A stretch of 64,000 bases of DNA from Promethearchaeota archaeon (GTDB lineage: Archaea > Asgardarchaeota > Lokiarchaeia > Sigyniarchaeales > SOKP01), in contig JAHPZE010000006.1 in NCBI GenBank assembly GCA_019058365.1, forward strand, positions 96,001 through 160,000. Reading direction: 5' to 3'. The number at the start of each line of letters is the position of its first letter. Position 1 is the stretch's first letter. A model generated the notes under the pieces. It had not been told where the DNA came from. It did no database searches and saw only the letters and a program-made list of their open reading frames with translations. Position numbers and translations under genes: made by a program. This document shows positions 32,300 through 35,256 of the stretch, piece after piece.

Positions 32300-33436
32300 T
32301 CAATCATCCTTACTTGGAATTTTCGGTAATTGTCTTCTACCACTTGGTTTTTTCGCTCTAGATTTTTCTAATATATCAATTAAATCAGCTTTCTTTGTAT
32401 TTATAGGTAAATCAATTTCTTTTTCTTCGGCATAAGCTTTAAGATCTTTTATAGTCATAGAATTAAAATCCGTTATCTCTTTAGGAGTTATAGTTTTCTT
32501 CATTGCATCTGGTTTAGTTGGCATTGGAGACAATCCTGAAGGAGATGTCTTTCTTGGAGCGTTATTTAATTTTTCTTCCTTTTCTAATACTTCAATAGCT
32601 TCCACAATTCCTTTCTTTTCGTCAAAATAAATTCTTAACACATGATTATCTAATTCTATCATTTCTTTTGGGACATTTTTAACTGGTTCCCAGTCGGTTT
32701 CTTCAACATTTTTTCCGAATACTTTAGCAATTTTTGAAACTGCAGCATAGAGTGTATAGCCCAAAATGAGATTTGTTCTTTTATAACCATCAGATACATC
32801 AGTTTTGAGAATTTTATCTTTTATTTTTTGTGCTTCTTCTCCTGATAATTCTATTGCTTTAGAAATTCTTGATGGTTTTACCATTTCTGATCTTGGATAT
32901 TGCGTCCTTGGTTTTGGTTTTAATGTACTCGAAGCGAAAGATGAAACTATTACTTCATTACTCGTATCTTGTAATGCTGGTGAGAAATACTCCTCTTCTG
33001 TCTGCAACTTAGTTGTTTTAGGAGCAACATCTGTAATAGGTGCTTGTTCCATTCTCTCCCGTTCAATATTTCGGACATATCGCATATCTGCTAATCGTTC
33101 AGTTACTTCCATCGATTCTAATCTGAATGTATTTAAGAATTCTGAAGGTTCTTCTCCCGCATCTACAGAAATAATCTTACAACGATGATATCTAGAATCG
33201 TTTATTAATTCTTCTTGAAGAGTTGCAGCTACTCTTGAACTGATAAATCTTTTTCGAACAGGTGATTTTGGACCTTTCCAAATGAAGATCCTTCGTAAAT
33301 CTTCTCTTATTATTACTAAAACTTGTTCTGGATGCATATTTTCCTGAAGATGCTCTTCAGTTATGTCTAATTTTATCCTTTCTCCAGAATCGTCTAATTC
33401 ATATACCATAAATGTCTCATATTCAGTCATTTTCAT
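32300..33436 (-). CDS. Gelsolin-domain protein with a C-terminal HeH/SAP (Rho-N-like) domain
   Basis: N-terminal HPEQVLVII...RIFIWKGPKSPVRKRF...VDAGEEPSEF (gelsolin fold signature); C-terminal FNSMTIKDLKAYAEEKEI....KKADLIDIL. Confidence 0.75.
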   Translation of the reverse strand: MKMTEYETFMVYELDDSGERIKLDITEEHLQENMHPEQVLVIIREDLRRIFIWKGPKSPVRKRFISSRVAATLQEELINDSRYHRCKIISVDAGEEPSEFLNTFRLESMEVTERLADMRYVRNIERERMEQAPITDVAPKTTKLQTEEEYFSPALQDTSNEVIVSSFASSTLKPKPRTQYPRSEMVKPSRISKAIELSGEEAQKIKDKILKTDVSDGYKRTNLILGYTLYAAVSKIAKVFGKNVEETDWEPVKNVPKEMIELDNHVLRIYFDEKKGIVEAIEVLEKEEKLNNAPRKTSPSGLSPMPTKPDAMKKTITPKEITDFNSMTIKDLKAYAEEKEIDLPINTKKADLIDILEKSRAKKPSGRRQLPKIPSKDD

Positions 33437-33643
33437 TCAGCAGTAATATTAATCTGTGATATTTCAATTTTTATGATAGTAATTAATAACTTTGTATTAT
33501 AATTTGAAATTTCTTTTAAAATTTAATTGTTTTAAAAAAAATATAAATTAGATTATATTAAATCTTTTTTTTTAAAAAACCAAGAGGATCTTTTTTGATT
33601 GCATATTTTAATTTTAAAATTGAAAAGAAAATCTTAGTTCTTA

Positions 33644-34357
33644 TTATCGATCGTGAAGGACATTATCTATTGATAATACAAATCCTACGAGAATTCTTCG
33701 ATCAGTCTGATTATCAAGTATTCTTAAAGCATATGTATCTTTAAAATCTAAAAGCCCTCCAAGAAAGACATCTCTCCATCGATCTGCTTTTTCTATTTCT
33801 GCTATAACATTACCAGTGGTTACATCATAAACCTTAAAACTCCACCCCATAAACTTGCCTTGAGCACGGAACCATTGGTTTCCTTGAGGGTCTTCAAGAA
33901 AAAACACAGGTCTGAAAAGGGATAAAATCTTCTTCTTAATTCGAGCTATAAGATTCCCTTGAGGATCTTTTAAATCTTGTGCTCCGCGAGCAGATACGAG
34001 TTTAGCATGAATCGTTGCTGCAATAGTTCCATCAACTTCTTGTAATTCAACTCTCCGTCGAATGCTTAAGATTATTCTTTTCATCTTCCCAATAATTTGG
34101 TTATGTTCGTCTAATATGTCGCCGCTTCCCCAATCCCAATACTTCTCCTTAAGGATATAGTAATTCCGGTTGATGTCAAACAATCCTCCTGGTGGGCTTG
34201 AGGGATATACTCTAGGACCAGTTGGTCTTGTTTGTATAGGGGCAGTTTCTACTTGTCTAGTGCTAGCTGCTATAGGTGAACCGCACTTTTCACAGAACCT
34301 TTGAGTTAAGTCGGAAATTTCCGCCCCGCAATTATTACAATATGGCACTTTTCTCAC
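33644..34357 (-). CDS. Zinc-ribbon + LURP-one/scramblase (Tubby C-like) protein
   Basis: YCNNCG..FCEKCG, Pro-rich linker, repeated D-x-x-G-x-x-I-A/G-x-I-K-K strands, DTYALRI, LSID. Confidence 0.82.
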   Translation of the reverse strand: MRKVPYCNNCGAEISDLTQRFCEKCGSPIAASTRQVETAPIQTRPTGPRVYPSSPPGGLFDINRNYYILKEKYWDWGSGDILDEHNQIIGKMKRIILSIRRRVELQEVDGTIAATIHAKLVSARGAQDLKDPQGNLIARIKKKILSLFRPVFFLEDPQGNQWFRAQGKFMGWSFKVYDVTTGNVIAEIEKADRWRDVFLGGLLDFKDTYALRILDNQTDRRILVGFVLSIDNVLHDR

Positions 34358-34503: not shown

Positions 34504-35256
34504 ATGTCAAGCCAAAGCATTCCAAAGTTATTAAAATTGAAGGACTATATTACACTTGTAGGCACTTCTTTAGGAATAATTGCTTTAGTATGTGCCTCTA
34601 TTGGTCACCCTTATTTACTTTCCTTAGGTTTTTTTTTGGTGACGATCTCGCTTGGTACTGATATGATAGACGGCTATATCGCTCGAAAAACAAATACAGT
34701 AAATGAAATGGGTAAAGAATTAGATTCATTGAGCGATTCTCTAACCTTTGGAATCACCCCCGCGGTTTTAGCTTACCAATCATTCAAAACAAATACCCTC
34801 TTTGATATTATTATTATAATCGGAGCAATATGTTTTGCTATTGGGGCAATACTAAGATTGGCACGTTATAACATTACAGAAAGTCCAGGATATACGGGAG
34901 TACCTACACCCATAAGTGCCTTGCTAATAATTACCTTCTTTTATGCAAATTACTTTTATTCTATTGCTATGGGTGATTTTTGGGGAATCTCTTCATATAT
35001 ACTACCAATAATTATGATCCTAATTGGCTGGTTTAATATTACTACATATATTCATTTTGGTGAGAAAGATAAAGCAACCTATATGCTTTTTATTATAGTT
35101 GCTCCACTATGTCCCATTTTTGGGATAATTGGAGTTAGTTCACCCAATTTCATAATTTCGATGATAGTTTCAATATTCTTTTTATGTTCTTTTCTTATTC
35201 TAATAATCTCAATCATAAGAGGATTTTTTCTTTACTTTAGGACAAAAAAAGGTTAG
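34504..35256 (+). CDS. CDP-alcohol phosphatidyltransferase (archaetidylserine synthase/PssA-like)
   Basis: DMIDGYIARK..NEMGKELDSLSD, LRLARYN, YTGVPTP. Confidence 0.88.
   Translation: MSSQSIPKLLKLKDYITLVGTSLGIIALVCASIGHPYLLSLGFFLVTISLGTDMIDGYIARKTNTVNEMGKELDSLSDSLTFGITPAVLAYQSFKTNTLFDIIIIIGAICFAIGAILRLARYNITESPGYTGVPTPISALLIITFFYANYFYSIAMGDFWGISSYILPIIMILIGWFNITTYIHFGEKDKATYMLFIIVAPLCPIFGIIGVSSPNFIISMIVSIFFLCSFLILIISIIRGFFLYFRTKKG

Follow-up and report, generated by a model that had tools for sequence, protein, structure and literature searches.

A gelsolin-domain gene in a 64,000-nucleotide stretch of Promethearchaeota archaeon DNA (assembly GCA_019058365.1, contig JAHPZE010000006.1, positions 96,001 to 160,000; called the window below) was found to encode a helix-extended-helix (HeH)/SAP-type module and a conserved peptide at its C-terminal end. 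Judged by sequence, its product, referred to here as the query, is very likely a member of the 1DGelX/GelX family and would be a long, Lokiarchaeia-specific form of it. The gelsolin plus domain X architecture and the 1DGelX/GelX proteins are already known; what appears to be new is the presence of the HeH/SAP module, which is of DNA-binding type, and of the conserved tail on GelX. No description of an HeH module or a terminal peptide on Asgard gelsolins was found in the searchable literature, full text included. The best explanation of the whole, which we hold to be moderately probable, is that the query is a GelX actin regulator whose C-terminal modules connect the ends or the turnover of actin filaments with the nucleoid, a partner complex or both.

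The gene is an intact open reading frame (ORF) at positions 32300..33436 of the window on the minus strand. It is stop-free throughout and encodes 378 amino acids, with the stop codon at 32300-32302; database gene calls place the start at Met3, which gives 376 residues. The gene region has about 30% G+C, and the assembly (4.74 Mb, 54 contigs) is Asgard (Promethearchaeota, Loki-type). The elements described in the original prediction, made from the sequence of the window alone, were a gelsolin domain, an S/P/T-rich linker, a middle domain, an HeH motif and a C-terminal tail, and all of them were present at the positions given in the following sections. An alignment of 99 sequences served as the basis of the AlphaFold2 (AF2) model and of the conservation counts.

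Conservation and origin of the C-terminal tail

The query ends in the tail KPSGRRQLPKIPSKDD (residues 363-378, window 32303..32350, minus strand), which was delimited by motif scan and conservation. It contains the core motif RRQLPKIP (residues 367-374, 32315-32338, minus strand). The C-terminal GRRQLPKIP that had been predicted lies in the terminal peptide GRRQLPKIPSKDD (residues 366-378), and the pattern put forward for checking among orthologues, RxLPxIP, proved to be conserved. A strict pattern, [KRT][KR]xL[PKQRH]x[IV]P, was present in 145 of the 270 fetched proteins, and in 143 of these 145 the motif ends 2-6 residues before the C-terminus. When a looser anchor was used (L-x-x-[IV]-P closely preceded by a basic residue; n = 153 sequences), the tail logo read R/K (145), R (149), x, L, P (145, with K in 6, R in 1 and Q in 1), K/E (135), I/V (148/5), P, S/K, x, D/E. 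The invariant positions are basic-R-x-L-x-x-[IV]-P near the free C-terminus.

The conservation profile shows that the linkers flanking the tail are hardly alignable while the tail itself is conserved. At 25 loci with an identical RRQLPKIP, there were 20 nucleotide versions and synonymous changes in all eight codons. Since the synonymous variation reaches all eight codons, selection acts on the tail peptide. Its conservation far exceeds what chance would produce. Among the ORFs of at least 60 amino acids in the 4.74-Mb genome, the C-terminal motif is unique to the query, and one internal KRELPSIP elsewhere is probably fortuitous. A docking signal common to several proteins of the genome was considered for the tail and ruled out, because within this ORF set only the query has a C-terminal copy. 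From these sequence patterns, the tail is likely to be a protein-docking motif, for which no single partner rises above an unlikely candidate.

The order in which the C-terminal parts arose was read from a tree calculated with FastTree on the gelsolin and domain X core (207 columns, midpoint root). Short, tail-less GelX proteins are basal, the tail arises at the base of a large clade, and the HeH appears later, inside that clade. One member of the tail clade comes from a closed 4.36-Mb genome in the same order and ends in KKRELKKIPSS. Three derived groups can be seen: a crown group with both HeH and tail, to which the query belongs; an HeH-less sister subclade that carries the tail; and a paralogue clade that is tail-less and has its HeH at the C-terminus. 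By this phylogeny, the tail marks a large Lokiarchaeia clade; it predates the HeH and is the more constant of the two.

Relationship to the 1DGelX/GelX family

Full-length relatives of the query number 642, and every one comes from an Asgard metagenome-assembled genome (MAG). In an exhaustive search of a library clustered at 50%, 231 representatives matched it at E<=0.001. Many of these are short GelX proteins of about 280-320 amino acids, in which single HMMER stretches run over the gelsolin domain and domain X (about 10-290 of the query). Short GelX proteins with gelsolin and X matches come from proteins labelled Odinarchaeia, 'Asgardarchaeia' and Hodarchaeum. The organism labels of many MAG proteins are inconsistent, with Thor, Odin, Hod and Hermod names on near-identical Loki-type sequences, and they were not used for taxonomy. 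In the query's own genome there are two more paralogues with gelsolin plus X, as well as a single 2DGel that carries a zinc ribbon.

In the published work, 1DGelX is defined by one gelsolin domain and an unknown domain X and occurs in all Asgard phyla (Akil 2020, PMC7444086). Thor 1DGelX binds rabbit actin with a dissociation constant of 7.7 μM, and it nucleates, sequesters and severs without calcium, while the bare-domain ProGel shows hardly any actin binding (PMC7444086). Two 1DGelX genes were counted in MK-D1 and three in Loki GC14_75 (Akil et al. 2022). In a motility study of L. ossiferum, five gelsolin-homology proteins were enriched in a co-immunoprecipitation with Lokiactin, and B35_GelX clusters with Thor_GelX among the gelsolin-homology proteins (bioRxiv 10.1101/2025.11.30.690169).

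Like Thor 1DGelX (PMC7444086) and B35_GelX (bioRxiv 10.1101/2025.11.30.690169; Nature PMC13716822), the query has an N-terminal gelsolin domain, a disordered linker and domain X, and belongs to an Asgard-only family. Unlike both, the query clade has about 90 residues more after domain X, made up of a TPMPxKP basic linker, the HeH/SAP module and the [KR]RxLPx[IV]P tail. The Thor 1DGelX and B35_GelX papers mention neither the HeH nor the terminal motif.

Other Asgard gelsolin proteins end differently. In short GelX proteins (P0228-P0264), the place of the linker, HeH and tail is taken by a conserved amphipathic helix at the end of the protein, EM+xxLxDL(V/I)xFFK or a C-terminal ...SLRDLTKLGI. 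In another architecture, a gelsolin domain is followed by PYPY(V/I)FKPP and a C-terminal CxxC...CxxC zinc ribbon (P0171, P0173, P0177, P0183, P0209, P0217). One short GelX paralogue of the same genome (G000:C40; L002:940-1773, minus strand) has 277 amino acids, no HeH and no tail. It is followed by a Roadblock/LC7 gene (L002:333-725, minus strand, 26.3 bits), a neighbour that the query gene does not have, and at a distance of about 5.5 kb there is a gene of the actin family (C40:73510-74601).

The gelsolin domain and the region that follows it

The gelsolin-homology domain covers residues 5-104 (33125..33424, minus strand), as delimited by Pfam, phmmer, AF2, Foldseek and conservation. Pfam Gelsolin (PF00626) matched residues 45-101 with an E-value of 1.1e-3 and 19.2 bits, below the 21-bit cut-off. 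This sub-threshold score is offset by a phmmer search against the sequences of the Protein Data Bank (PDB), in which Thor ProGel (7c2f_B) was the top match with an E-value of 6.7e-6, followed by the Thor and Heimdall 2DGels, and by the match in fold. AF2 modeled residues 9-103 with a predicted local distance difference test (pLDDT) score of about 95. The top Foldseek match of the model was again 7c2f_B, which is ProGel in its actin complex, with a template-modelling (TM) score of 0.88 by target and a root-mean-square deviation of 1.5 Å. Against the PDB, 63 matches reached E<=1e-3, and the 50 listed were all gelsolin-family domains (gelsolin, villin, adseverin). The N-terminal gelsolin domain of the original prediction is thereby upheld, and as modeled the head is a bona fide gelsolin fold.

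Across the 99 aligned sequences, W53, G55, F64 and F100 are invariant and I65, R68 and A70 nearly so. The most conserved residues of the head sit in the WxG signature (W53-K-G55) and the long helix (60-78). In gelsolin G1 and ProGel, the long helix is the actin contact. Residues 5-104 resemble Thor ProGel (7C2F) and the Asgard 2DGels (7C2G, 7C2H, 7WHF) in fold and sequence, in the WxG and in the long actin-binding helix. The query differs from ProGel, a bare domain with negligible actin affinity, and from the 2DGels with their two domains, their calcium sites and a linker of LKKT-like type. In a pairwise alignment with 2DGel3, the query reads V60-R61-K62 where 2DGel3 reads V-D-E, so the acidic pair of the calcium site is absent, in keeping with the calcium independence of Thor 1DGelX. 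A calcium-independent GelX fits, since V-R-K replaces the V-D-E of the type II calcium site.

The domain is followed by a conserved extension, RLESMEVTERLADMRYVRNIERERME (residues 105-130, 33047..33124, minus strand), recognized from the conservation profile and AF2. It is conserved almost like the gelsolin domain itself, and AF2 places a short helix at 123-130. By position, the extension may hold the place of the WH2-like linker between D1 and D2 of the Asgard 2DGels (PMC9433394). Residues 131-195 (32852..33046, minus strand) form linker 1, which AF2 models as disordered. Its composition of 14% S, 11% P and 11% T agrees with the S/P/T-rich linker that had been predicted. Inside it, an EEYFSPAL motif (residues 148-155, 32972-32995, minus strand) stands out by conservation, and its P153 is near-invariant across the family.

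Domain X

Domain X extends over about residues 196-290 (32567..32851, minus strand). AF2 predicts one helix (199-211) and five long antiparallel strands, with a pLDDT of about 95 in the full-length model. Folded alone, the domain gave a pLDDT of 89 and a predicted TM score (pTM) of 0.76. It is alignable across the 99 sequences. Foldseek against the PDB gave a best E-value of only 0.43 for domain X, and VIA-align in its wide mode did no better than Z 3.5; chains of PAS, GAF, Cache and Roadblock/LC7 type were scattered among its matches at Z 2.2-3.1. Because these scores are too weak, no fold name is given to the domain. Structural matches in the ESM Atlas, with TM scores of 0.90, 0.70 and 0.61, came only from Promethearchaeota clusters, one of them named gelsolin-like, and feature-based and structure-based searches of the ESM Atlas found nothing beyond the protein's own Asgard clusters. 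From the model, we are confident that domain X is a compact alpha+beta domain without a convincing solved relative.

The same domain was previously a predicted coiled coil by I-TASSER (Akil 2020, PMC7444086) and a 'disordered domain of unknown function' in the L. ossiferum study (bioRxiv 10.1101/2025.11.30.690169). The AF2 fold would correct both the coiled-coil and the disordered picture. The middle region had also been called an unrecognised globular domain in the original prediction; it is globular in the model, but it is the domain X of the published 1DGelX/GelX proteins and so not unrecognised. Two tandem copies of domain X precede an LPKIP tail in some GelX relatives of genus g2 (P0123, P0131; loci L164-L166).

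The HeH/SAP module between domain X and the tail

A basic linker 2 (residues 291-322, 32471..32566, minus strand; pI 10.2), recognized by composition, follows domain X. It contains the conserved motif LSPMPTKPDAMKK (residues 301-313, 32498-32536, minus strand), with the consensus (S/T)(M/L)TPMPxKPxS(M/L)K. The HeH/SAP/Rho_N-type module itself comprises residues 323-362 (32351..32470, minus strand) and was identified with Pfam and AF2. All of its Pfam matches are sub-threshold: HeH with an E-value of 2e-4 (21.4 versus 28.9 bits), Rho_N with 3.7e-4 (20.8 versus 24.9 bits) and SAP with 4e-3 (17.1 versus 23.9 bits). AF2 predicts two helices, 329-338 and 349-361, with an extended joint, at a pLDDT of about 94. 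The alignable HeH of the paralogue P0136 scores above the Pfam cut-offs (HeH 41.2, Ish1 40.9, SAP 38.9 and Rho_N 32.3 bits). The model and this paralogue bear out the helix-extension-helix that had been read from the sequence. Like the SAP/HeH/LEM/Rho_N modules (PF02037, PF12949, PF07498, PF10281), it has two helices and an extended segment, with the pattern TVKDLK-Y-----I-L------KAEII-IL. It is unlike the Pfam SAP, HeH and Rho_N modules in being acidic and below the cut-offs, which the paralogues exceed.

Relatives fill the slot between domain X and the tail in other ways. Two proteins of the tail-less paralogue clade, P0159 and P0290, have a helix-hairpin-helix (HhH) in place of the HeH (HHH_5, 27.0 bits, at the cut-off; 62% identical there, on separate contigs). 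The HeH-less, tail-bearing sister subclade has histone-H1-like (A/T/P)PKKK or (A/P)KKK repeats with a net charge of +8 to +24. A GelX HeH profile run against the query's own genome matched Topo VI-B, an ScpA-like protein and two Rho_N plus CxC...CxH proteins. The Topo VI-B (G000:C35:243617-246955, plus strand; 1113 amino acids, Topo-VIb_trans 99 bits) carries its HeH at residues 961-994, followed by a further C-terminal extension. Since the HeH appears genuine, is replaced by HhH or polybasic sequence, and recurs on Topo VI-B, the segment from domain X to the tail would bind a polyanion, most simply DNA. Nucleic-acid binding by the HeH region is slightly favored on these sequence comparisons, which lend indirect support to the tether between actin and nucleic acid that the original prediction had suggested as a possibility.

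The remaining matches of the profile are observations about other proteins. The ScpA-like protein (G000:C35:226524-227534, plus strand) has 337 amino acids, an N-terminal HeH at 63 bits and an ScpA/kleisin match of 17.9 versus 24.6 bits, and may be an HeH-bearing kleisin. The other two are paralogues (G000:C46:34917-36023, minus strand, and G000:C43:28073-29023, plus strand) with an N-terminal Rho_N/HeH and a SWIM-like CxC...CxH.

Genomic neighborhood

The query gene is preceded by an AT-rich intergenic region of 207 nucleotides (33437..33643, minus strand), as read from the sequence. Directly upstream, on the same strand, is a gene for a zinc ribbon and a LOR/Tubby-like barrel (window 33644-34357, minus strand), and this gene adjoins one for a pssA-like CDP-alcohol phosphatidyltransferase (window 34504-35256, plus strand). 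Given the AT-rich spacer and a T-run after the upstream LOR/zinc-ribbon gene, the GelX gene probably has its own promoter.

The flanking LOR/Tubby-like plus zinc-ribbon, phosphatidyltransferase, HEAT/zinc-ribbon and DeoC aldolase genes recur in most of 80 related loci. The LOR gene and the transferase each stand beside GelX in 69 of the 80. Of five sister-family genomes, two retain the LOR gene and three the transferase, so synteny there is partial. Because the whole region is collinear in the family, no functional coupling is inferred from the neighbors. A lipid link to a gelsolin-type protein is conceivable.

Proposed mechanism and alternative explanations

By analogy with the characterized family members, the query is likely an actin regulator. 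The working model we consider most likely has a calcium-independent head for severing and capping, whose position is set by the C-terminal modules. The head, the extension and domain X would together engage Lokiactin, and their severing, capping or nucleation of filaments would need no calcium, as was measured for Thor 1DGelX. The C-terminal appendages would place the protein without acting on actin. Of these, the HeH (in relatives, the HhH or the (A/P)KKK repeats) would bind a polyanion, most likely DNA, and the terminal peptide would be a short linear docking motif for a conserved protein partner. In this way the nucleoid, a partner complex or both would be coupled to the ends of actin filaments or to their turnover. 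A narrower version, in which GelX-HeH holds Lokiactin filament ends by its gelsolin head and chromosomal DNA by the HeH, HhH or H1-like basic module, for nucleoid anchoring or segregation, and the tail recruits a conserved factor, is unlikely.

Several observations weigh against the proposed mechanism as a whole. The HeH of the query falls below every Pfam cut-off and is acidic (pI 5.2, net charge -1). Its profile gave marginal matches against PDB sequences, with E-values of 0.017 for FluMu gp35, 0.033 for the Ku70 SAP and 0.27 for the Tho1 SAP. As 37 of the 130 long tail-bearing relatives do not have the HeH, the core function of this clade cannot lie in DNA binding by that module. The swap of HeH for HhH occurs only in the tail-less paralogue clade and not in that of the query. 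For the polybasic repeats, F-actin and acidic lipids or membranes are equally conceivable ligands. The neighboring genes give no functional link. Finally, the orthology to Thor 1DGelX (SMTZ1-83) is putative and follows from the architecture and from family-wide homology.

One alternative for the tail's partner is an SH3 domain. The tail would then be a class I ligand (RxLPxxP) that recruits the tandem-SH3 protein P0276, making GelX an adaptor in a eukaryote-like SH3 actin network. In RRQLPKIP, the residues R368-Q-L-P371-K-I-P374 do fit +xLPxxP, as the original prediction had claimed. P0276 (G000:C29:80370-80711, minus strand; L120:1333-1674, minus strand) has 114 amino acids and two SH3_2 domains at 33.1 and 29.2 bits, over the cut-off, with eukaryote-like ligand-site residues (ALYDY-like, WW-like and P-x-x-Y-like), and it was found in 14 of 15 same-genus genomes. 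However, the agreement does not extend to the family as a whole. The first proline of the motif is K, R or Q in 8 of the 153 tails, for example in the KRELKKIPSS of the closed genome, and P0276 is patchy within the family, where no more than 33 of 71 genomes yielded it. LPKIP tails also occur in G019, G030, G159 and G168, with genome completeness of 90-100%, and searches for P0276 homologues and for over-cut-off SH3_2, the two things searched for, found neither in these four. SH3_1 was not found in the query's own genome, and the invariant RR, L and IP exceed the usual needs of an SH3 site. The SH3 reading is accordingly quite unlikely. The LPKIP sequence also resembles the MIM2 core, (L/V)Px(V/L)P, and the genome has a Vps4-type MIT protein (55.7 bits). 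An LPxIP ligand of Vps4 MIT would tie actin turnover to membrane remodeling by the endosomal sorting complex required for transport (ESCRT). The variable first proline speaks against this as well, MIM2 motifs usually carry more prolines than the tail does, no other protein of the genome has the motif, any ESCRT-III candidates included, and there are no ESCRT genes in GelX synteny. A MIM2-like tail is thus highly improbable.

Another possible explanation is that the tail touches actin itself, as a second contact of the WH2 or 'LKKT' type (Leu, two basic residues, then Val, Thr or Ile) on the same actin subunit or the next one, which enables severing, nucleation or bundling, with the HeH or basic region serving mainly as a spacer or an F-actin side binder. 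A few relatives have the variants LKKIP, LRKIP and LHKVP, and polybasic linkers can bind F-actin. Asgard 2DGels use LRRV, LKHV, LRRT or LVDV on actin (PMC9433394), and an actin side-binding element was proposed in the C-terminal extension of 1DGelX (Akil et al., PMC7444086). In 145 of the 153 tails, though, the sequence is LP(K/E)I (LPKI in the query) and not L-basic-basic, and the HeH-less forms have no amphipathic helix before the motif. Neither the WH2 LKKT consensus nor the class I SH3 consensus (+xxPxxP) spans the whole tail family, although the query fits RxLPxxP. The positional equivalent of the WH2-like motif of the 2DGels is already found after the head (DMRYVRN), and short GelX proteins, including the clade into which Thor-labelled sequences fall, are tail-less, although severing by Thor 1DGelX is efficient. 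No WH2 match came up in a Pfam scan at E<=10, a result that by itself points neither way. We regard a second actin contact as unlikely. It could instead be that the HeH is a protein-protein or structural module of a cytoplasmic actin regulator, and that the tail autoinhibits by folding onto domain X or the head. C-terminal latches are common in the gelsolin family, and human gelsolin is autoinhibited by one. The HeH of the query is acidic, the module is optional within the clade, and the tail has an AF2 pLDDT of 66-74 compared to 42-50 for the linkers. Against this stand the HhH of tail-less paralogues and the H1-like basic repeats of the tail-bearing sister clade in the HeH slot, an HeH of the same type on Topo VI-B, and the AF2 model, which, with a pTM of 0.40, has no confident interdomain packing. 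This reading also seems unlikely to us.

Implications for the Asgard actin skeleton

As functional analogies to the proposed actin regulator with positioning modules, MRTF/myocardin (RPEL plus SAP) and villin (gelsolin core plus headpiece) likewise join an actin-binding unit to a SAP or targeting module. They do not share a homologous architecture with the query, which has no RPEL or headpiece, and they act in nuclei or bundles. No prokaryotes other than the Asgard archaea are known to have a regulated actin skeleton of the eukaryotic kind, and the Asgard actin regulators known so far are filament severers, cappers and sequesterers only. If the proposal is true, GelX-HeH would provide an actin-based link to the nucleoid in the closest archaeal relatives of eukaryotes, and the tail would define a new system of short linear motifs in archaea. 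The question of what the actin skeleton of these archaea attaches to bears on the pre-eukaryotic origin of the links between actin and chromatin and between actin and its adaptors.

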